A DNA stretch of 64,000 nucleotides, taken from Candidatus Anderseniibacteriota bacterium (GTDB lineage Bacteria > Patescibacteriota > Andersenbacteria > UBA10190). The number at the start of each line of letters is the position of its first letter. Position 1 is the first letter of the stretch. Below, one piece after another: positions 11,255 to 19,920 of this stretch. The notes below the pieces were generated by a model. It saw only the letters and a list, made by a program, of their open reading frames with translations, was not told the origin of the DNA and ran no database searches. Made by a program: the position numbers and the translations under genes. The stretch is from positions 18,232 through 82,231 of the forward strand of contig JBBDOX010000018.1 in assembly GCA_040876835.1 (NCBI GenBank), given 5' to 3'.

Positions 11255-13060
11255 TTATTTCTTCTCGATATTCAGTTTGATATGCAGTTCGCGTAATTGC
11301 TTGTCGTCGACTGTAGACGGCGCGCTCATCATTACGTCTTGAGCCCGACCATTTTTAGGAAATGCGTAAATATCCCTGATACTTGGCACGTCCATAAGTA
11401 CCATCAAAAGGCGATCGACTCCTGGAGCAGATCCGCCATGAGGCGGGGCTCCAAATTCAAAGGCTCGGATCATGGCTCCGAATTTTTCATCTACTTGTTC
11501 CTTAGTGTATCCGGCTATCTCAAACGCTTTATACATAATATCCGGCCGGTGATTTCGAATGGCGCCAGAGCTAGTTTCAAATCCATTTAACACCAAGTCA
11601 TACTGATGCGCCAAGATGTGGATCGGATCTTTGGATACAAGTGCTTCCATTCCCCCTTGAGGCATTGAAAAAGGGTTATGCGAAAAGTCGATCTTTCCTT
11701 CCGTTTCATTAAATTCATACATCGGAAAATCAACAATCCAGCACCAGGCTGCTTTGTTCGGATCCTTCAGGTTCAGTTTTTGGGCAGCCAGATCACGAAC
11801 GGCTCCTAACGCTTTACAGACTACCAGCCACGTGTCCGCCCCGAAAAATATTGCGTCACCTTTTTTAGCGCCGACCTGGTCAGCAATTGCCTGTGCCGCC
11901 TCCTGCCCCAAGTATTTAATGATGGGTGATTCCAGTTCATCCCGTACCAGGATATATGCCAAGCCTTTAGCTCCATGCTCTTTGGCTTTGTCGGTGAGCT
12001 CATCAATCTCCTTGCGGGAGAAAGTTGCGCCCCCTGCTACATGCAAAGCGTGGACTACTCCCCCACCTGCAACCGCGCTGGCGAATACAGAAAATTTCGA
12101 ATCTTTTACCAGGTCAGATACTGCAGAGATGTATAGCTCATACCGCAAGTCCGGCTTATCACTACCATATTTTGTCATTGCCTCTTTCCAGGGAATACGC
12201 GGAAAACGTTTGGCCACAATCTCCTTATCGCTAAACGCTTCCGTCAGCTCTATCATCAGCGGCTCAATGACATTAAATACATCCTCCTGCTCCACGAAAC
12301 TCATTTCCAGATCAAGCTGATAGAACTCTCCGGGGTGACGATCGGCTCGCGGGTCTTCGTCCCGAAAACACGGCGCAATCTGGAAGTAACGGTCTACTCC
12401 CCCGACCATTAACAGCTGTTTGAATTGCTGCGGTGCCTGAGGGAGAGCATAAAAAGTTCCGGGATGAAGGCGGCTGGGCACGAGATAGTCGCGGGCTCCC
12501 TCAGGTGAGGAATTAGCCAGGATGGGCGTCTGCACTTCCGTAAATCCTTCGCCGTGCATATATTCACGAATGTACGTTAAGAACGCGTCACGTTTTTTAA
12601 GCATGTCCTGCAGCCGCTGGTGACGTAGATCCAGAAAACGGTATTTGAGGCGCAGCTCTTCGTTCACATCAATATCTTTGGAGATTTCAAAGGGAAGATG
12701 TTTAGCTTCGCTTAAGAGCGTAAGCTTAGTCACTTCCACTTCTACTTCCCCGGTCGGAATATTCTTGTTTACCATCTCGGCGGGCCGCTGAACCACAATG
12801 CCCGTAATCTGAATGACGAACTCATCACGTAACTGCTCGGCTAATTCAAACACCGTGACATTTTTTTTCGGGTCAAATGTTAGTTGCGTTATTCCGTATC
12901 GATCGCGGAGGTCAATGAAGATCAGCCCTCCGTGATCACGGCGTGAATGAACCCAGCCGGACAACCGCACTTCTTCTCCGACATGTGTAACGCGAAGATC
13001 TCCCGCAGTATGGGTGCGGTACACGTTTGGTTTTATACTTGGAGTTTTCTGTTCTGACAT
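11255..13060 (-). CDS. aspS: Aspartyl-tRNA synthetase
   Basis: Class II aaRS motifs 'FRDEDPRADRHPGEFYQLD' and 'GGSAPGVDRLLM'. OB-fold N-domain. Confidence 0.95.
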   Translation of the reverse strand: MSEQKTPSIKPNVYRTHTAGDLRVTHVGEEVRLSGWVHSRRDHGGLIFIDLRDRYGITQLTFDPKKNVTVFELAEQLRDEFVIQITGIVVQRPAEMVNKNIPTGEVEVEVTKLTLLSEAKHLPFEISKDIDVNEELRLKYRFLDLRHQRLQDMLKKRDAFLTYIREYMHGEGFTEVQTPILANSSPEGARDYLVPSRLHPGTFYALPQAPQQFKQLLMVGGVDRYFQIAPCFRDEDPRADRHPGEFYQLDLEMSFVEQEDVFNVIEPLMIELTEAFSDKEIVAKRFPRIPWKEAMTKYGSDKPDLRYELYISAVSDLVKDSKFSVFASAVAGGGVVHALHVAGGATFSRKEIDELTDKAKEHGAKGLAYILVRDELESPIIKYLGQEAAQAIADQVGAKKGDAIFFGADTWLVVCKALGAVRDLAAQKLNLKDPNKAAWCWIVDFPMYEFNETEGKIDFSHNPFSMPQGGMEALVSKDPIHILAHQYDLVLNGFETSSGAIRNHRPDIMYKAFEIAGYTKEQVDEKFGAMIRAFEFGAPPHGGSAPGVDRLLMVLMDVPSIRDIYAFPKNGRAQDVMMSAPSTVDDKQLRELHIKLNIEKK

Positions 13061-13341
13061 GGCTTAAGGGTACTGGAGATGTGGGTTTATAGGCAACAAA
13101 AAACCGAGAAGACTAACCACAACCCATGTTGCGATTACTCTCCTCGGTTCCTATCCAACTGCAAGCAGCTGGACAAGAGGTCGTATGCCGAGGATGCGCC
13201 CCGCTCCTTCAAACGGGGCTTTTTTGAGGTAATGAACACTGCGCAAATGCGCATTTGAGAATCCCCCTTCTCTCAAACGGGCACTTTTCCACAGATTCTG
13301 AACGAACGTTCAAATATACCGATACGAACAGAAAAAGACAA
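13061..13341 (-). promoter_or_regulatory. aspS 5' leader (~250 nt) with a sigma70-like promoter and a terminator hairpin plus U-tract just before the start codon. T-box-like attenuator candidate.
   Basis: On the minus strand: TTGTCT-17-TATATT promoter (13336..13341 and 13313..13318). Several stem-loops. A 'GGAUAGGAACCGAGG' segment resembling the T-box sequence overlaps the 5' arm of the CCGAGGAGA/UCUUCUCGG terminator stem, which is followed by UUUUUUG about 45 nt before the AUG. Confidence 0.3.
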
Positions 13342-13604
13342 GGGTAAATGCAAAATCCGACTCATCAGTGGCAAAGAGTGAATTCGCGCAAGCAGTAGGA
13401 ATGCACGAGAGCTTAAACACTCAAGACAGGGCAAGCCGAAACTGTCCCAGCTATGTTGCGCTAAGCCACCCCTAACGTAAGTAAATATATCAGGGGCCCC
13501 TCCTTACCACGGACAAGGCGGATTTTTATACCTAATTCAATGAACTGATTATTATAATCATCCAGGAGGTTTTGTCAAGTGCATTTAGAAGACCAAAGAA
13601 AAAG

Positions 13605-13634
13605 CGGGTGGATACAGCTTACATCCGACCCGCT
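13605..13634 (-). terminator. Intrinsic terminator after ORF 13659..14042
   Basis: gcgggtcggatgtaagctgtatccacccgc hairpin followed by TTTTTCTTT on the minus strand. Confidence 0.45.
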
Positions 13635-13658
13635 ACCTTGCTTTTGTGAACTGCTTGG

Positions 13659-14042
13659 CTAGTGTGCAGCCAGCCACCAGTTCCGGCTGTCGCGCTGCCG
13701 TGCGGTCCGGTTGTGCCGACGTCCGCCTCGGTGCTTTTTGGGTTCCCTGGGGCGGAACACACTCTTGAGTCCCGCATAGTTCAGCAGGAGCTCTCGACCA
13801 GCTTCGGGGGGCAACGCCCGCACGTTTGGGTCATGGCGACACTCGACGTGCACCAGGCCAACCTCGGGCGACCCGTTGCGAGCGAGGACCGACGGCTGCT
13901 CCCAGTCGACGTCCTTTTTGCAACCCAGACAGCGATCGTGGCGCTTGATCGCTTGCCGGATCTTTCGCTTCTGCAGCCGCGTCAGTCCTACGCCCAGTGC
14001 CTTGTCTGGGCAGCTTCGCTGCAACACCAGCAGTTCGGTCAT
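13659..14042 (-). CDS. Hypothetical Cys-motif protein (127 aa), high-GC island
   Basis: 'RCLGCKK...(22 aa)...GLVHVECRH' motif, paralogous to the C-terminus of 14255..14956. GC about 60% by eye. Confidence 0.4.
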   Translation of the reverse strand: MTELLVLQRSCPDKALGVGLTRLQKRKIRQAIKRHDRCLGCKKDVDWEQPSVLARNGSPEVGLVHVECRHDPNVRALPPEAGRELLLNYAGLKSVFRPREPKKHRGGRRHNRTARQRDSRNWWLAAH

Positions 14043-14254
14043 GATCCGCTCCCTTGCGAACCAGAAAAATGTCGGCCTATTCCAGTCAGGCCAACGGAAA
14101 GCCTTCGCAGAAAGAAACGTACTAGTGTGACACTACGCCACATAGGGACTACGTTACTCCTCACTTTCATTTTTTGTCAACGCCTTCCGACATAGAAAAA
14201 GAAAAGCGGATGAAGCAGTAAATACTTCACCCGCCTGAAATCCTTCGTCCTGAT

Positions 14255-14956
14255 TCAGCGCCAGGACGCGAACGACTCTTCGTGGCTGCTCGTCGACTGC
14301 TTCCGCAAGTCAGACAGACGCCGCTTTTCGGCCTCGATGACCCTGTCGCGGATGATCCGGCCAATCTCAAGCGAGGTCAGCAGTTGGCACAAGATTCTGG
14401 GGTGCTTCTGCTGAAGCTTTCGCACGCACCTCTGGTCGGCGTGTACCAAGCCGATCGCCTTGCACCGATCACGGTCGCCGATGCGCACCATGTACCCCTT
14501 GTCGAGCACGGGTTCCGTGCATCCCGTGCAAGCGGCATTCTTCTTGAGCCAGGTCCGAGCCTCTTTCTGCTCCTCGGCGTTGAGACCGCGACCTTCCCGC
14601 TTGCCATTGCTGACCCTGACAGCAGCGAACGGGCGCGGGAAGGACAGAAGGCTGGCCTTCGCCATCTTCGTCTTGACCATGCTCTCGTCCAGCTGTTTCC
14701 ACAGCTCGCCGGGGGTGCTCAGTTCGTAATCCCCCTCAGCGTACGCCGCTTCGAAGATCACTTCGATCCGGTTTCCCCTCTTGACAGCCAGGAGCCGCTC
14801 ACCCAGCCGCAGCCACTGCTTCAGAATGGGACACTGCCCATACTGCCAGTCCTGCAGGATGACGAGCACCTCATCGACCGGAACCCCCAGCCAATTTGCC
14901 AACTCAGACAAATTGAAGCCAGCGTGCCGGTTCTGCACTCCCACATCGGTCTTCAT
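14255..14956 (-). CDS. Hypothetical protein (233 aa), high-GC island. N-terminal family motif plus C-terminal CxGC...GLVHxxxRC motif.
   Basis: 'LSELANWLGVPVDEVLVILQDWQY' at the N-terminus, and 'ACTGCTEP...(23 aa)...GLVHADQRC' at the C-terminus. Confidence 0.45.
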   Translation of the reverse strand: MKTDVGVQNRHAGFNLSELANWLGVPVDEVLVILQDWQYGQCPILKQWLRLGERLLAVKRGNRIEVIFEAAYAEGDYELSTPGELWKQLDESMVKTKMAKASLLSFPRPFAAVRVSNGKREGRGLNAEEQKEARTWLKKNAACTGCTEPVLDKGYMVRIGDRDRCKAIGLVHADQRCVRKLQQKHPRILCQLLTSLEIGRIIRDRVIEAEKRRLSDLRKQSTSSHEESFASWR

Positions 14957-15030
14957 TTCGCACTCCTTTCAGACATGAGATACTGGCTCATTCCACGAAC
15001 CAGCGAAAACCACAATCTTGAAAAAAACAA

Positions 15031-15093
15031 GTGTCAAATGACACATATATTTACCCTACACTTTTCACCCTTTTTGTCAATCAGCCTTGACAC
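15031..15093. promoter_or_regulatory. Two palindromic TGTCA/TGACA elements upstream of the minus-strand ORF 14255..14956
   Basis: GTGTCAAATGACAC (15031..15044, perfect 14-bp palindrome) and TTGTCAA-tcagcc-TTGACAC (15074..15093). Confidence 0.3.
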
Positions 15094-15156
15094 TTGCCTA
15101 ACCTGCATCAAAACTTGCAATCTTTGATTTTTATGGGTTTAATACTTCTACCCTAT

Positions 15157-15228
15157 GCGCCCATAGCTCAATGGTAGAGCAGTGGCCTTTTAAGCCAACG
15201 GTTCCAGGTTCAAGTCCTGGTGGGCGCA
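15157..15228 (+). tRNA. tRNA-Lys (anticodon UUU)
   Basis: 72-nt cloverleaf. Acceptor GCGCCCA/TGGGCGC, D-arm GCTC-AATGGTA-GAGC, anticodon loop CTTTTAA, T-arm CCAGG-TTCAAGT-CCTGG, discriminator A. Confidence 0.9.
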
Positions 15229-15325
15229 CAATCTAAAGTATGGTCGCGGTATTAAATTGGAGGCTCAAGTCAGTTTTTAACCTGGCTCTTTTAAGAATAT
15301 CCAGGCATGCAACCCTGGCTCTTTC

Positions 15326-16153
15326 TTAAGGGTTTTTAAGAATTTCTTCAATTCGGGGATTCTGATCAACTTTTCTGCCAAGCAACTGCAGTGATTCAAA
15401 GATATCAGCAATAAGTCCCGCCGCCTGTTCGTTTTTAATAACTACAGCCACTAATTCCTGCCAGTTGGCAATGATCACCGTATCGTTATGCAACGTTACC
15501 TCTGAGTCAAAGTTTAATCGTTCAGCTGGAACATGGTGAGTAATTGCGAGACGCCCACCGTATGCCTGCAAAATATCTTTTGATGATTTCCCCTCTTTTT
15601 TAAGCCGATCAGTGTAGTAATCAAGGAAATTCTCCTGCAGGATCGCCTCAACAATAATTTTTCGATCCTTTATGGATTGATTTAGTTTTACAAGCCGATC
15701 ATAAGGAAAGTGTTTCATTACGCTATAGGCTGAGATGTTCGGTTGCATGATGTGAAGACGAGTATGGCGAGGAAGCTGTCCCAGGCTTTCATAAATCTCA
15801 ACCAACTTATTCTTTCCCGCATACACTTTGTATTCGCTCTGCTGCGAGGAAATAATGCCCAGCTCTTGCTCACCTGACTCCTCCGCAATTTCGTGAGAAT
15901 GCGCAAGCATGAATAGTTTTTCGCGCAATTTTCTTGGCGATACCGTCTTCCAGTATCGCCGCTTGCCGCGGTTAGTGGTAGTAACTAGGCCTCGCTCCTT
16001 CAGGCGTGAAAGCCTCGGGTATACACTCGTGCGCGGCTGGTGAGTACTTCGGGCCAGCTCAGACACACTTAAATCGTGCTTTTCGAGCATTTTGAGAAGC
16101 GCATTATCTTCTGACGTAAGCCCTAATAAGGTGAGCGATTCCCGAGTAAACAT
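15326..16153 (-). CDS. TrmB-like winged-helix transcriptional regulator
   Basis: N-terminal wHTH 'LSVSELARSTHQPRTSVYPRLSRLKERGLV' followed by a C-terminal effector-like domain. Host-like GC. Confidence 0.55.
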   Translation of the reverse strand: MFTRESLTLLGLTSEDNALLKMLEKHDLSVSELARSTHQPRTSVYPRLSRLKERGLVTTTNRGKRRYWKTVSPRKLREKLFMLAHSHEIAEESGEQELGIISSQQSEYKVYAGKNKLVEIYESLGQLPRHTRLHIMQPNISAYSVMKHFPYDRLVKLNQSIKDRKIIVEAILQENFLDYYTDRLKKEGKSSKDILQAYGGRLAITHHVPAERLNFDSEVTLHNDTVIIANWQELVAVVIKNEQAAGLIADIFESLQLLGRKVDQNPRIEEILKNP

Positions 16154-16342
16154 ATATTCATTATATATTATGACGTAATTTACGTCAACATAACTTCATA
16201 TAATATGGCTATACGTAACTGTAAACAAGCCTAAAGTAAAAAAGTGTTGTGAAAAATAGAGGTTAGCGCCGCAATGCACCAAACTTGGGCTACACAGTCA
16301 ATGACCGCTCTTTTCATGTCCAAATCTTGGAGGGAATACGCC

Positions 16343-17326
16343 ATGTCAGACCTTACCGAAGACCGCCAGGTCCTGGTCAACCTCGAGATCAATAAGGACT
16401 GTCAGCTCACCAGTGTGTGTGGTGACAGTTGTTTTCTGAACCTCGTGGAGAAAGCCTTGCCTGGTGTGGAGCGACTTGCGCCGGCGGCAGTACTTGCCGC
16501 CGCTCGGGAAGTAATCGACCACGGTCAGACAGTGCGTCACCTTGCTATTACGGGCAAGGAGCCGCTGGACACCCCGGATCTGTTGTTCGACATCTTGCGG
16601 TATTACCATGCTGCACCAGTCGAGTCACGGCCGGGTACCGTGGGCATTATTACGTCGGGCTTGCAACTTCGACGACATGCCCACCGCTTCCCGGAGTTGC
16701 CGCTGGATTGGTGTGCTATGTCCCTTGATATCGCATCATCGGTCTTGCATGTCGAGCGCATGAACGAAAAGCTGTTCGGCGACCTGCTACACGTGAAGGA
16801 CACTGGCGGGATCAAGTCGTTCACGGTTAATTCCGTGTACACGGCTGATAACTACAAGGATGTCCTGCAATTCGGCAAATGGCTTACCGCTAAGCTGGGC
16901 GAAGGAGACCAGTGGGGCTTGTCATCACTGATGCTTCCTCAGCATGGCGTGATGCAGCCAACTGTTTCGATTCCGGCGACCCGCGAGATGATTGACCTCG
17001 CACTCGAGGAGTTGAGTGATACAGCCTGCGATATCCTCTTCGAACCTGACCCTGACGAGTTTGAGATTTTGACTGGCAAGTCAGTCAAGAAGCGATGGCG
17101 AACTGAGCTGCACCTCGCTGGGGGTATCTGGATGATTACGGTACCAAGCGAAGAAGGCTACTTTGTACGGCTGCGCTGGGATGGGCAGCTGTTGACCCGC
17201 AAGGACTTGCGATGCATTGGTCTTCGCCAGGCGACCTACGGCGCCTACCAGGCAGGTAGACTCGTAGAAACACTGGAGCGGTTGAGTGTTACTCGGTCGC
17301 TGGACCAGCAACCCACACAACACTGA
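16343..17326 (+). CDS. Radical-SAM-fold protein with a non-canonical Cx5Cx3C cysteine cluster (high-GC island)
   Basis: 'NKDCQLTSVCGDSCF' cluster, a 'LAITGKEPLD' (GGEPLL-like) motif, and 'GIITSGLQL' and 'MSLD' elements in the expected radical SAM order. GGAGGG Shine-Dalgarno before the ATG at 16343 (the ORF track starts at 16274). Confidence 0.45.
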   Translation: MSDLTEDRQVLVNLEINKDCQLTSVCGDSCFLNLVEKALPGVERLAPAAVLAAAREVIDHGQTVRHLAITGKEPLDTPDLLFDILRYYHAAPVESRPGTVGIITSGLQLRRHAHRFPELPLDWCAMSLDIASSVLHVERMNEKLFGDLLHVKDTGGIKSFTVNSVYTADNYKDVLQFGKWLTAKLGEGDQWGLSSLMLPQHGVMQPTVSIPATREMIDLALEELSDTACDILFEPDPDEFEILTGKSVKKRWRTELHLAGGIWMITVPSEEGYFVRLRWDGQLLTRKDLRCIGLRQATYGAYQAGRLVETLERLSVTRSLDQQPTQH

Positions 17327-17333
17327 GGTGACC

Positions 17334-17549
17334 ATGGTGTTAGGCAACGAGATGGCGAACGAGGGTCTCTCAAGAAGGAAGAGGAGGACGCAGATGGTAC
17401 TCGGCAACGAGATGGCAAAGGAAAACCTGCGCGAACGTCTGCACAAGACGACGAGCCAGGCAGCAAAGAAGCAGTCCCCAGCGGACGCCCCCAAGGACGA
17501 GAAGTGTGAGAACCAGGAGAGCAAGGAACAGGCTCACGGTTCGCACTAG
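17334..17549 (+). CDS. Small K/E-rich peptide (71 aa) with a duplicated N-terminal 'MVLGNEMA(N/K)E' motif, translationally coupled to the radical-SAM-like gene
   Basis: AGGTGA Shine-Dalgarno 4 nt before the ATG, which lies 8 nt after the upstream TGA stop. A near-tandem DNA repeat encodes MVLGNEMANEG and MVLGNEMAKEN. Single Cys, then a hairpin plus T-run terminator. Confidence 0.35.
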   Translation: MVLGNEMANEGLSRRKRRTQMVLGNEMAKENLRERLHKTTSQAAKKQSPADAPKDEKCENQESKEQAHGSH

Positions 17550-17571
17550 CAGACTCTCTGTCTGCGCCCCG

Positions 17572-17607
17572 CCCCCAGGTTTTACAACTTGGGGGTCTTT
17601 TTCTTTT
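17572..17607 (+). terminator. Intrinsic terminator after the peptide gene
   Basis: cccccagg-tttacaa-cttggggg hairpin followed by a T-rich run (TCTTTTTCTTTTC). Confidence 0.5.
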
Positions 17608-17615
17608 CACAGATG

Positions 17616-17644
17616 TTGACACTAATGGATCGCCATGATAATAC
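17616..17644 (+). promoter_or_regulatory. Sigma70-like promoter for ORF 17704..17997
   Basis: TTGACA, a 17-nt spacer, then TAATAC. AGGAGA Shine-Dalgarno before the ATG at 17704. Confidence 0.4.
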
Positions 17645-17703
17645 TTTCTGGTCAAACTACGGTGGTTTGATAATGGGTTGACACTCTTTAGGAGAGCCCA
17701 CAG

Positions 17704-17997
17704 ATGGAAACGAGCAAGACGGTGGCAGTGAAGCGTCGTCCATTCCACGAGACGGTCGTCGACGCCATCAACGCCTGCGACGTGGAGACGTTCCTGTGCC
17801 TGACAGAGCTGATCAAGATTACCAAAATCCCCAAGGGGCATGACGAGATCATCTCAGCCTGGGAGGGACGTCGGGAGCAACTGGTCTTCCCCGACGGATA
17901 CCGCGGGGTGGTGGCTGATCTCCTCGAGCAGAAAGAGGAAGCAGCCGCGAAGGAAGTGGCCAAGCAAGAGGCAGAGCCCATCTCCTCCCCGTCCTGA
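17704..17997 (+). CDS. Hypothetical protein (97 aa), high-GC orphan carrying the family N-terminal motif
   Basis: 'ETVVDAINACDVETFLCLTELIKITKIPKGHDEIISAWEG' aligns with the 'GLPIQEKDILSWVEF' block of ORF 6628..7017. Confidence 0.45.
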   Translation: METSKTVAVKRRPFHETVVDAINACDVETFLCLTELIKITKIPKGHDEIISAWEGRREQLVFPDGYRGVVADLLEQKEEAAAKEVAKQEAEPISSPS

Positions 17998-18142
17998 GTT
18001 CCTTGACCGCGCAAGCGCACGACCTACGGGTACGGCGTTTTTCTTTTGTTGATTGTGCTACAATATAGTCATAAGTTATCCACATTGCTTTCGGGGGAGG
18101 GGCGTTGGATTATCCTTCATTAAACATTAAACACAAATACGT

Positions 18143-18790
18143 ATGAACAGGAAGTTCTTGTGGTCAGTGGGCGGAGTCGGCACCCTGGCTGCTTTATTAT
18201 TAGTAATCGGCCTTGGTACAACAGCGGCCAGTACCTCGTACACATTCGTCGTGCGCGGAGTAGTTGAGTCCGTTAACACCAGCACTGGTGTGATGAACGT
18301 CACTGGTACTTTCGCTTCGGCGAAGGCCATAGTTGATACCCAGAGCAAGAATATCGGCTATTCAGTTAAGAATGCCAAGTTCACTAAGTGGGAGAATGGC
18401 GTGCGAGTTAAGCGTAATATCAAGCACGTTGCTGTAGGTGATGAAGTTGTCCTTAAGGGCAGCAAAACAACTGGCGGATCATTTGTCGTTGACGAGCTGA
18501 CCGTTAATGATCGCGGATTTGAAGTAGTTGGACGCGTTCGTGACATTGATACTGAAGAAAATAGCATCACGGTTGTAGTGGGACGCTCCACATATAAGCA
18601 TAAGGCGTATGTTAATAAGGAAGTGAAAGTGTACTACATTGACGATGTAACTAAATGTCGACGTCTTGGTACAGAAATTGATTGTAGCGAGATCCAAGCT
18701 GACAACCAGGGTATCAAGGTTAAAGGTGGTCTGACCGGCGCCGAAGGTAAGTGGGAAATATCCCACGCCTGGAACCAGTATCCTCTGTAA
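18143..18790 (+). CDS. Secreted or membrane-anchored hypothetical protein with two beta-rich internal repeats
   Basis: N-terminal hydrophobic anchor. Repeated 'FVVRGVVESV..' and 'FEVVGRVRDI..' modules. Host-like GC. Confidence 0.5.
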   Translation: MNRKFLWSVGGVGTLAALLLVIGLGTTAASTSYTFVVRGVVESVNTSTGVMNVTGTFASAKAIVDTQSKNIGYSVKNAKFTKWENGVRVKRNIKHVAVGDEVVLKGSKTTGGSFVVDELTVNDRGFEVVGRVRDIDTEENSITVVVGRSTYKHKAYVNKEVKVYYIDDVTKCRRLGTEIDCSEIQADNQGIKVKGGLTGAEGKWEISHAWNQYPL

Positions 18791-18815
18791 AGTCAGAGAC
18801 CTGCGTTCTACAGAA

Positions 18816-18845
18816 CAGCCCCTCTTTTACGAGGGGCTGTTTGTT
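18816..18845 (+). terminator. Intrinsic terminator after ORF 18143..18790; overlaps the dnaJ stop
   Basis: cagcccctc-tttta-cgaggggctg hairpin followed by TTTGTT. Confidence 0.5.
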
Positions 18846-19920
18846 AGCCAAACAATCCTTTTTTCTTAGACTTTTTGAATTCCTCCAAGAGTTCCTTCTG
18901 TTTGCGTGACAGTTTGCGGGGAATATCGATATGAACTGTCACGATATGATCGCCTCTACCAGACCCACTCAGAGAGGGAAAGCCCTGCCCCTGCAGGCGG
19001 ACAGTCGTTTCAGGTTGCGTGCCAGAGGCAATCGTTATCTCTTTATCACCTGCCAATGTTTTAACAGAAATATTTGTACCCAGGATCGCATCGGTAAAGG
19101 GAATTGTAGCTTCGCTCACTACGTTATTCCCCTCCCGCCGCATGTATTTATCAGATGCTACATGAATCGTAACAAAAAGATCACCAGGAATTCCACCGCG
19201 CGCCGGCACCTCTCCCTTACCACTAATGCGAATTGTTTGGCCATCAGCAATACCGGCCGGAACATCAACCGTAAGCGTTCTGTCTTTTAATTCTCTCCCC
19301 TGCCCCCCACACTCGGAACACACAGTCTTAGCCTGCTTACCTTCACCCTGACAGGTTGGGCAGACAGACTGTTGGGAAAACACACCTAAGGGAGTGCTCC
19401 GACTTTGGGTGATTACTCCTGTCCCACTGCAAGTAGCACATGTTTCAATCGGTGTGCCAGGCTCTGCTCCATTACCTTGACAGTGAGAGCAGGTCTGATA
19501 GATACGATGCGTAATTTCACGCTGGACTCCGGTGGCAGATTCTGAAAAGGAGATAATCATATCTACTGGTACATCGTTGCCTCGACGGACACGCTGGCGG
19601 GTGCGACTTCGTCCGCCTCCGCCAAAGAAGGTTTCGAAGATATCGCCAATGCCGCCTAGGTCTTCAAAATTGATATTAATATTTTCACCACCGAAGGGGC
19701 CTGCCCCTGTTCCTTCAAACGTCTGGCCGAACTGTTCATACTGACGACGTTTTTCCTCGTCGCCCAAGACCTGGTAGGCTTCGTTTACTTCTTTGAACTT
19801 TTCTTCGTCGCCGCCCTGTTTGTCCGGATGGTACTTATGGGCCATTTTCCGGTATGCCTTTTTTACATCCTCGGGTGAGGCATCGCGAGATATTCCTAAT
19901 GTTTCATAGTAATCAGCCAT
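18844..19920 (-). CDS. dnaJ: Chaperone DnaJ
   Basis: J-domain 'YYETLGISRDASPEDVKKAYRKMAHKYHPD', a G/F-rich linker, and four CxxCxGxG zinc-finger repeats. Confidence 0.95.
   Translation of the reverse strand: MADYYETLGISRDASPEDVKKAYRKMAHKYHPDKQGGDEEKFKEVNEAYQVLGDEEKRRQYEQFGQTFEGTGAGPFGGENININFEDLGGIGDIFETFFGGGGRSRTRQRVRRGNDVPVDMIISFSESATGVQREITHRIYQTCSHCQGNGAEPGTPIETCATCSGTGVITQSRSTPLGVFSQQSVCPTCQGEGKQAKTVCSECGGQGRELKDRTLTVDVPAGIADGQTIRISGKGEVPARGGIPGDLFVTIHVASDKYMRREGNNVVSEATIPFTDAILGTNISVKTLAGDKEITIASGTQPETTVRLQGQGFPSLSGSGRGDHIVTVHIDIPRKLSRKQKELLEEFKKSKKKGLFG

Follow-up and report, generated by a model that had tools for sequence, protein, structure and literature searches.

A divergent radical-SAM-fold enzyme and a partner peptide with a doubled motif in an Andersenbacteria genome: a candidate peptide-modification module

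A radical-SAM-fold enzyme gene followed by a small peptide gene

A 64,000-nucleotide stretch of a Candidatus Anderseniibacteriota genome (GenBank assembly GCA_040876835.1, contig JBBDOX010000018.1, positions 18,232 to 82,231; hereafter the window) contains a gene for a protein with the landmarks of a radical S-adenosylmethionine (SAM) enzyme, immediately followed by a gene for a short hydrophilic peptide. A sequence-only reading of this DNA had proposed that the two form a peptide-modification pair related to RiPPs (peptides synthesized ribosomally and modified after translation), and the question raised by the locus is whether the two genes belong together and, if so, what the enzyme does to the peptide. 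Because the N-terminal motif of the peptide is fused to the enzyme itself in most relatives, the enzyme and the peptide almost certainly work together as an undescribed system, and this system is probably peptide-modifying. The features on which this answer depends are listed below, with positions counted from the first letter of the window.

16343–17326, plus strand: gene of the radical-SAM-fold enzyme, of the split type without an N-terminal motif (327 amino acids [aa]; P0001)
16330–16334, plus strand: Shine–Dalgarno (SD) sequence of the enzyme gene, GGAGG, 8 nucleotides (nt) ahead of the ATG at 16343, read directly from the sequence
16400–16432, plus strand: codons of C20-x5-C26-x3-C30, presumed to ligate a [4Fe-4S] cluster; the loop that holds these Cys follows strand beta-1 (residues 10–15)
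16553–16561, plus strand: codons of G71-K72-E73, counterpart of the GGE SAM-binding motif, aligned with GGEPL of BlsE
17326–17331, plus strand: SD sequence of the peptide gene, AGGTGA, overlapping the enzyme stop codon, likewise read directly
17334–17549, plus strand: partner peptide gene (71 aa; MEX0650233.1, hypothetical protein WD200_04475)
17334–17369, plus strand: motif copy 1, MVLGNEMANEGL, the first 12 residues of the peptide
17394–17429, plus strand: motif copy 2, MVLGNEMAKENL, a 12-residue repeat of copy 1
17571–17606, plus strand: intrinsic terminator closing the enzyme–peptide operon, with an 11-pair stem at 17571–17596 containing 6 G-C pairs, then the T-run CTTTTTCTTT

The enzyme N-terminus reads MSDLTEDRQVLVNLEINKDCQLTSVCGDSCFLN, and the order of landmarks described in the sequence-only reading (the Cys cluster, then AITGKEPLD, IITSG, and MSLD) was recovered in full on re-reading of the open reading frame (ORF). 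The peptide had also been said to start just past the enzyme TGA behind AGGTGA, and this is true: the stop codon occupies 17324–17326 and the peptide ATG begins at 17334, leaving a gap of 7 nt, so that the ATG starts at the eighth base past the stop. Since the SD sequence of the peptide overlaps the enzyme stop codon, the arrangement of the sequence implies that the two genes are translationally coupled. The terminator noted behind the peptide scored highest of all terminator-like sites in the region.

The peptide (MVLGNEMANEGLSRRKRRTQMVLGNEMAKENLRERLHKTTSQAAKKQSPADAPKDEKCENQESKEQAHGSH) is hydrophilic and of low complexity. Translation and repeat comparison confirmed the duplicated N-terminus, the K/E/Q-rich tail, and the single Cys that had been noticed in it. 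At the DNA level, the repeated segments at 17334–17362 and 17394–17422 are 83% identical, and over 12 codons copies 1 and 2 differ by five synonymous changes (TTA/CTC included) and two replacements. Because the synonymous changes outnumber the replacements, the pattern of substitution indicates that the repeat is maintained at the protein level. The peptide had no match in Pfam, NCBIfam, PHROGs, or PADLOC; the NCBI Prokaryotic Genome Annotation Pipeline (PGAP) annotates the ORF as a gene.

Split and fused forms of the enzyme family

The apparent size of the family depended on the method of search. A word-indexed protein search returned 8–11 relatives per query among 5.8 billion proteins, even when it was started from a 45-sequence alignment that itself included database sequences. 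When 1.84 billion cluster representatives were searched exhaustively with a profile, 59 family clusters were identified at E ≤ 1e-10, beyond which the matches were ordinary radical-SAM enzymes. Rarity judged from the indexed search alone would mislead. The family clusters that were looked up hold one or two members each, from metagenomes or metagenome-assembled genomes. A scan of metagenomes found one locus, already among the known ones, and a scan of genomes found two more, whereas no family member was detected in viral contigs scanned with a nine-sequence alignment (A1) or in plasmid searches. The family has no Pfam or NCBIfam model, its members are annotated as 'hypothetical', and literature searches on fused radical-SAM precursors and on RiPPs of the candidate phyla radiation (CPR) found no description of it.

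Approximately 40 members open at Met1 with a motif of about 10 residues, with the consensus M-P-G-V-A-E-N-A-L-E (for example, MPGVAENALEL, MGVLAEMALEG, MSVVAESALEL, and MAVVATNTLEP). In these fused members, the motif is followed by a linker of variable sequence, with the first Cys at residue 32–34, and in P0006, P0007, and P0011 the motif is doubled at the N-terminus. The motif is missing from the window enzyme and from its closest relatives (P0002-5, P0009, P0010, P0047, and P0134), which constitute the split type, and their sequences start at the point where the motif and linker of the fused members end.

At every split-type locus with enough flanking DNA, one or more small ORFs lie adjacent to the enzyme gene, either upstream or downstream, and in four of these loci, the window counted, the doubled motif is clearly homologous. 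The peptide gene lies downstream of the enzyme gene in the window (MVLGNEMANEGL...MVLGNEMAKENL) and at two other loci (L010, MAAICETALVRLP...GAICETALVKLP; L014, MAAICEAALEALP...AVVCETALEPLP), both of which have a terminator hairpin and an SD equivalent, AAGGAGGTG, ahead of the peptide ORF. At L004/L005, it lies upstream of the enzyme gene with its own SD sequence (MAAIAEMAGEGL...VAVAEMAGEPL). When the four alignable peptides were compared (alignment A5), M1, E6, A8, and L12 were common to copy 1 and an E and an A to copy 2, and all of them end in a hydrophilic tail in which DQE(S/N)K recurs as a weak motif. On the P0004 contig, a 48-aa ORF lies downstream of the enzyme gene at a distance of 30 nt. 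The enzyme of L006 diverges the most (31% identity); upstream of its gene lie two small ORFs, tandem and paralogous, with their own common motif, ML-x-GVGGA-x-GAI-x-PP.

The peptide is thus conserved beside enzyme homologs, as the sequence-only reading had asked of a genuine pair: the doubled-motif ORFs occur at L004/L005, L010, and L014, and in most other members the motif is fused to the enzyme. As in RiPP pairs, the encoded peptide is either adjacent or fused to the enzyme, and the split and fused forms stand in a Rosetta-stone relationship of enzyme and motif.

Place of the enzyme in the radical-SAM superfamily

Pfam itself did not assign the enzyme. The Radical_SAM model PF04055 scored 24 bits against the window enzyme (E = 5e-5), below the cut-off of 29.5; the match spanned residues 42–136, leaving the Cys motif uncovered, and just 9 of 45 family members matched this model at E ≤ 0.01. 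The NCBIfam matches of the enzyme were weak and far under their cut-offs (BlsE, E = 1.3e-5; MoaA, E = 1e-3; and viperin). In contrast, BlsE, a radical-SAM enzyme of solved structure, was matched by a profile of the 45 family members (E = 1.8e-9), with GKEPL aligned to GGEPL, IITSG to IITNG, vSvD to VSLD, and vNTv to VNSV. The AlphaFold model of the window enzyme (pLDDT 88.8, pTM 0.89) is a beta/alpha barrel whose first strand (residues 10–15) runs into the Cys loop, and it corresponds to the partial (beta/alpha)6 TIM barrel of the radical-SAM superfamily. Across the 45 sequences (alignment A2), the sole invariant non-Met columns are the three Cys, the Glu of GKE (E101 in P0006 numbering), and the Ser and Asp of SxD, and the SAM-binding motifs of the superfamily (GGE, ribose/SxD, and the GxIxGxxE region) are recognizable in the sequence.

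On the basis of the profile and structure evidence, not of Pfam, the enzyme appears to be a highly divergent, fringe member of the radical-SAM superfamily with a predicted radical-SAM activity. The radical-SAM relationship proposed in the sequence-only reading is thereby upheld by the BlsE match and the barrel model, whereas the profile hits that were to check it came out unevenly: PF04055 remained below threshold, the family-profile search of the radical-SAM fold was positive, and a SPASM domain was not found. Beyond the Cx5Cx3C motif, neither alignment A1 nor A2 contains a conserved Cys, so that an auxiliary cluster of the SPASM/twitch type is lacking.

The Cys motif (nt 16400–16432) is indeed the atypical Cx5Cx3C in place of CxxxCxxC; by the superfamily definition (PF04055; Sofia et al.), CX3CX2C follows strand beta-1 and ligates the SAM-binding [4Fe-4S] cluster. 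C20, C26, and C30 are invariant in both A1 (9 sequences) and A2 (45 sequences). Most family members have the Cx5Cx3C spacing, and in most the second gap reads C-G-x-x-C; four members have Cx7Cx3C, and P0041 and P0044 have Cx5Cx2C. Two distant matches that share the overall architecture have the canonical CxxxCxxC. In the RadicalSAM.org survey, variants of the first spacing ranged from X4 to X11 and the second spacing was always X2; several genuine radical-SAM families thus accommodate extra residues between their first two Cys (PMC9477430). As the surveyed variants all keep X2, the X3 second spacing read here is unusual among radical-SAM cluster motifs, and a literature search found no paper pairing CX5CX3C with radical SAM.

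A TrmB-like regulator and its candidate operator

The enzyme–peptide operon is separated by a 190-nt intergenic region from a divergent regulator gene, and the features on this side of the locus are as follows.

15157–15229: tRNA-Lys(UUU), preceding the regulator gene in coordinate order
15326–16153, minus strand: TrmB-like winged-helix regulator gene (275 aa; MEX0650231.1, annotated by NCBI as a winged-helix protein), divergent from the enzyme gene
16171–16187, no strand assigned: 17-bp palindrome, TGACGTAATTTACGTCA, just upstream of the regulator gene and overlapping the -35 element of its promoter

Both the TrmB-type regulator and the tRNA-Lys had been recognized nearby upstream in the sequence-only reading. 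The regulator passes the Pfam TrmB model (PF01978, 33.1 bits against a cut-off of 25.6) and has the N-terminal winged helix of that family; for its C-terminal part of about 200 residues, neither Pfam nor NCBIfam gave a match to a sugar-binding domain known from TrmB proteins. A homologous gene of 261–276 aa lies divergently beside the enzyme gene at L004, L006, L010, and L014 and on the P0004 contig. The regulators of these relatives are 69, 64, 56, and 28% identical to the window protein, and the regulator and enzyme co-diverge, with 28% identity for the regulator and 31% for the enzyme at L006. The TrmB-like regulator is a conserved partner of the split-type enzymes and is divergently oriented at all split-type loci.

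The palindrome at 16171–16187 is unique in the window, where no chance match is expected (0), and near-identical palindromes occur at the same position at L010 (TGACGTAAAATACGTCA), L014 (TGACGTAATTTACGTCA), L004 (TGACGTAATTTATGTCA), and L006 (TGACGTAAAATGCGTCA). The regulator gene has a promoter-like site, TTGACG-17-TATAAT, at 16188–16160 on the minus strand (11/12 matches). Judging from these positions, the TrmB-like regulator probably uses the palindrome as its operator to control the two divergent transcription units.

In the double-fused clade, the divergent gene encodes a 303-aa HTH_24/AsnC-type protein, and the palindrome is a different one (CTATCTGATAG). Because the window TrmB-like protein and the regulator of this clade (L015) are similar in the winged helix only, the regulator is not a single conserved family over the three architectures. 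The winged helix-turn-helix (HTH) regulator of the double-fused enzyme is broken into two or three ORFs at L003 (1290–1607 and 683–1264) and L007 (4858–5802), which are near-identical long-read assemblies, and is intact (303 aa) in L015; the breaks probably stem from indels in the assemblies. Because L007 carries the label 'uncultured archaeon', the family may span bacteria and archaea.

Operons of the fused-type enzymes

The single-fused clade has a different setting. In all five contexts (the L001, L008, L011, L012, and P0135 contigs), the enzyme gene is preceded by a gene for a protein of ~370–410 aa with an XRE-type HTH, of which four aligned copies share 22–24% identity, and is directly followed by the gene for an SBP_bac_5 lipoprotein, with which it often overlaps; genes for two permeases and two oligo_HPY ATPases come next. 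The L011 operon additionally encodes a class I methyltransferase.

Many fused enzymes end in -AA (RLAA, RVAA, ALAA, LKAA, etc.), which resembles an ssrA-like degradation tag. This ending was observed in P0017, P0018, P0020, P0025, P0030, P0040, P0045, P0048, P0053, P0055, P0058, P0061, and P0139, and in none of the eight split-type enzymes. To judge by their C-terminal sequences, these fused enzymes may be turned over by proteolysis.

Mobile or defence genes were seen near several family loci: an AbiEii/AbiEi pair at L012 (9644–11281), genes for a DNA methylase, a DEAD helicase, and ParA at L001 (1–5163), and a PIN/RHH toxin–antitoxin pair at L010 (2281–2945).

The peptide as a candidate substrate

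Our preferred reading, to which we would give about even chances, is that the locus is a two-gene radical-SAM peptide-modification module under a dedicated repressor, with neither a SPASM domain nor a RiPP recognition element (RRE). In such a module, C20, C26, and C30 would hold the [4Fe-4S] cluster, and the GKE, IITSG, and SxD motifs would bind SAM. Reductive cleavage of SAM would then generate a 5'-deoxyadenosyl radical, which would abstract a hydrogen from the substrate; cluster reduction, SAM cleavage, and hydrogen abstraction are the general catalytic steps of the superfamily. The substrate would be the short motif x-x-h-h-[A/N/C]-E-x-A-x-[E]-x-L, present twice in the co-transcribed 71-aa peptide, and as both an RRE and a SPASM domain are lacking, the enzyme would recognize this motif directly. 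In the wider family, where the motif sits on a variable linker at residue 1, enzyme and substrate would be one chain, whereas in the Andersenbacteria-type loci it would have been duplicated and split off as a gene of its own, allowing many turnovers per enzyme. The TrmB-like protein would bind the 17-bp palindrome over its own promoter and thereby gate both transcription units.

Several observations bear on the role of the motif. Apart from the catalytic motifs, no other element is as well conserved. In the AlphaFold model of a natural fusion (P0135, from a 21-sequence alignment), the overall pLDDT was 90, with ~65 at residues 1–20 and >90 for the rest. Because the linker varies and residues 1–20 are modelled poorly, we infer that the motif acts as a tethered ligand, not as a core element of the fold. 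Motif variants track the enzyme segments at GKE and SxD by clade, a signal confounded by phylogeny; for example, xGAGTxxE pairs with SLDG....H.RG and [CVA]E[KW]EP. Given that the motif is conserved, tethered, duplicated and released as its own gene, and co-varying with active-site motifs, the reading of the motif as the substrate of the enzyme seems to us the best supported.

Against the substrate role stand a number of points. The fused motif of P0135 was not docked confidently by AlphaFold. An RRE, SPASM/twitch Cys, a protease, and an exporter were not detected in the window or the split loci, which accordingly do not display the leader/core organization with RRE, peptidase, or exporter that is typical of RiPPs. 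The motif contains no aromatic residue or conserved Cys, one of which is required for most known radical-SAM peptide cross-links, and no second conserved Cys that could act as hydrogen donor for epimerization occurs in the 45 enzymes, whereas epimerases such as YydG/EpeE use a spare Cys for this purpose. The closest relatives by sequence (BlsE, MoaA, and viperin) act on nucleosides or nucleotides. The peptides at L006 have no clear sequence motif in common with the other peptides. Fused-type enzymes are coupled to an Opp/Nik-like importer, and an imported small molecule could be the true substrate. Finally, the X3 spacing lies outside the described cluster-motif variants (PMC9477430), and cluster binding is itself a prediction. 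Of the pair proposed in the sequence-only reading, the linkage of enzyme and peptide is supported by the neighbouring and fused motifs, and the case for the peptide as the modified substrate is evenly poised.

Alternative readings of the pair

The alternative that survives best, though we hold it to be clearly less probable than a substrate role, gives the motif the role of a short linear element for docking or regulation, with the enzyme acting on a small molecule. The motif might then cap the active site, promote dimerization (with the two copies bridging protomers), or couple the enzyme to a regulator or transporter, and the substrate might be a nucleoside, some sugar derivative, or an opine-like or peptide compound brought in by import. 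Such a role would suit the translational coupling of the fused-type gene to those for SBP_bac_5, permeases, and ATPases in five of five contexts, the addition of a methyltransferase at L011, the failure to find RiPP accessory genes, the lack in the motif of residues typical of radical-SAM cross-links, and the sequence affinity to BlsE, MoaA, and viperin. However, duplication of the motif, its release as a separate gene with a strong SD sequence, and its position on either side of the enzyme gene would not be expected of a structural or regulatory element, and no transporter is adjacent at the split loci. The variable linker and low model confidence oppose an integral structural role, and both fused and split enzyme–substrate pairs are already known in the borosin RiPPs (10.1101/2021.12.24.474128).

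A bolder extension of the substrate reading, which we consider improbable, is that the ancestral enzyme is its own precursor: its N-terminal motif would be self-modified, released by proteolysis, re-imported by the SBP_bac_5 transporter, and sensed by the HTH protein. In the fused form, the motif would be modified once and the enzyme then degraded, in keeping with the ssrA-like -AA tails. The freed, modified peptide would be taken up by the co-encoded ABC transporter and sensed by the HTH protein, forming a signalling circuit. The split form, with its doubled free peptide and a TrmB-like regulator with an operator, would be a multi-turnover catalytic derivative, and from the Cx5Cx3C site the enzyme would carry out a radical-SAM reaction of a new kind, with an aliphatic/acidic A-E-x-A motif as its target.

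It is very unlikely that the enzyme is a viperin-like antiviral or defensive enzyme that makes a modified nucleotide, with the small ORF incidental or antitoxin-like. The weak matches to PADLOC pVip (E = 0.0094) and NCBIfam viperin_w_prok (E = 0.071), the island-like contrast in GC content at third codon positions (GC3), and the surroundings of two relatives (the AbiE pair beside L012 and the L001 contig with ParA, a DNA methylase, and a helicase) could be read in this way, but the scores are far below threshold (13 bits in PADLOC, and 12 bits against a 180-bit cut-off in NCBIfam), and SuiB, ChlB, MoaA, SkfB, and PqqE match equally well or better. Neither a nucleotide kinase nor any other pVip-associated gene is present, no family member occurred in the scanned viral contigs or plasmids, and the conserved motif and its fusion to the enzyme would be left unexplained. 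A viperin or defence identity was rejected on these scores, as the enzyme has neither a significant pVip match nor the CxxxCxxC motif.

That the 71-aa ORF is a chance or non-functional frame and the pairing meaningless, which its lack of database matches and its hydrophilic, low-complexity composition might suggest, is scarcely credible and effectively refuted by the conservation of the peptide in four loci counting the window and the fusion of the motif in ~40 members, in addition to the SD site, the tight spacing to the enzyme gene, the terminator, the mostly synonymous inter-repeat substitutions, and the PGAP gene call.

Composition and neighbourhood of the locus

The locus had also been described as a foreign-composition island. 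A comparison of 13600–15000 and 16343–18000 with 15000–16250 and the flanks showed a real contrast: GC3 is high in the enzyme (0.64) and peptide (0.78) genes and in two ORFs of 97 and 233 aa (orf97, 0.77; orf233, 0.80), and low in the TrmB-like gene (0.46) and in the genes for AspRS, DnaJ, and DnaK (0.45–0.50). At L006, GC3 is 0.79 for the peptides, 0.55 for the enzyme, 0.32 for the regulator, and 0.28 for host genes, and a similar contrast was found at L010. However, att-like direct repeats and repeats of the tRNA-Lys 3' end were absent within 13000–19000, so that no integration boundaries can be assigned, and the low-GC3 regulator co-diverges with the enzyme, for which reason the contrast is not accounted for by the module having been transferred recently as one unit. 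Of the foreign island, only the composition contrast holds.

To the left of the tRNA-Lys, a GC-rich stretch (up to 63% GC) at 13659–14956 on the minus strand contains orf233 (hypothetical protein WD200_04455) and a 127-aa ORF (orf127) that is unannotated by NCBI, and it carries long overlapping ORFs on both strands. Just past the operon terminator lies orf97, an acidic ORF at 17704–17997 on the plus strand (hypothetical protein WD200_04480), with a promoter-like site, TTGACA-18-AATACT, ahead of it at 17616–17645. Searches with orf97, orf233, and orf127 returned nothing usable from Pfam, NCBIfam, PADLOC, or PHROGs. These three ORFs and orf215 were considered as parts of the module and rejected, as none is conserved near the relatives.

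Implications

If the peptide is the substrate, the locus would represent a new minimal radical-SAM RiPP-like family without RRE, SPASM domain, or leader, and the known radical-SAM cluster motifs would be extended to the Cx5Cx3C spacing. The comparison of the fused motif with the doubled, free motif of 10–12 residues would in that case directly identify the site of recognition or modification, and the chemistry would therefore be testable with a two-gene construct. It would also be a regulated peptide-modification module in the Andersenbacteria, members of the CPR with reduced genomes in which few such modules have been described. Current pipelines miss the family, and both annotation and genome mining would gain from a model of it.

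Comparison with known systems

The most obvious counterparts are the radical-SAM RiPP maturases of the SPASM/twitch branch, namely SuiB/StrB (streptide), PqqE, SkfB, ChlB, CteB, anSME, and EpeE/YydG. The window system differs from these in that it has no C-terminal SPASM/twitch Cys, only three Cys being conserved, no RRE or PqqD-like domain, and a Cx5Cx3C cluster instead of CxxxCxxC. The conserved motif of the family lies at the extreme N-terminus, the usual position of a leader, and it contains no aromatic residue or Cys; the split loci have no protease or exporter.

By sequence, the closest enzymes are BlsE (cytosylglucuronate decarboxylase), MoaA, and viperin, which are of similar size and have a C-terminal beta-sheet extension. 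However, these have the canonical CxxxCxxC, act on nucleoside or nucleotide substrates, and have no partner peptide, and MoaA has a second cluster; the scores of the window enzyme are far below the family cut-offs (25 bits where 400 are required). The non-canonical radical-SAM families (CX4-11CX2C, with ThiC, PhnJ, and Dph2 as outliers) share the insertion in the first gap and differ in their X2 second gap. The regulator is like other TrmB-family members in its winged helix and in the palindrome over its own promoter, although its C-terminal part is unmatched.

In architecture, the nearest parallel is offered by the borosins (fused in the OphMA type and split in bacteria), in which the peptide is either fused to the enzyme, which is then autocatalytic, or encoded separately (10.1101/2021.12.24.474128; PMC8429565), as in the window family. 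Borosin enzymes are SAM-dependent N-methyltransferases, and their core is C-terminal, not N-terminal, so that the likeness would be one of architecture only. A radical-SAM enzyme with a neighbouring peptide is already known as a general kind of system. What appears to be new here is the dichotomy of split and fused forms, which we did not find described for radical-SAM enzymes, in combination with the Cx5Cx3C site, an enzyme free of RRE and SPASM domains, and a conserved motif at the N-terminus.

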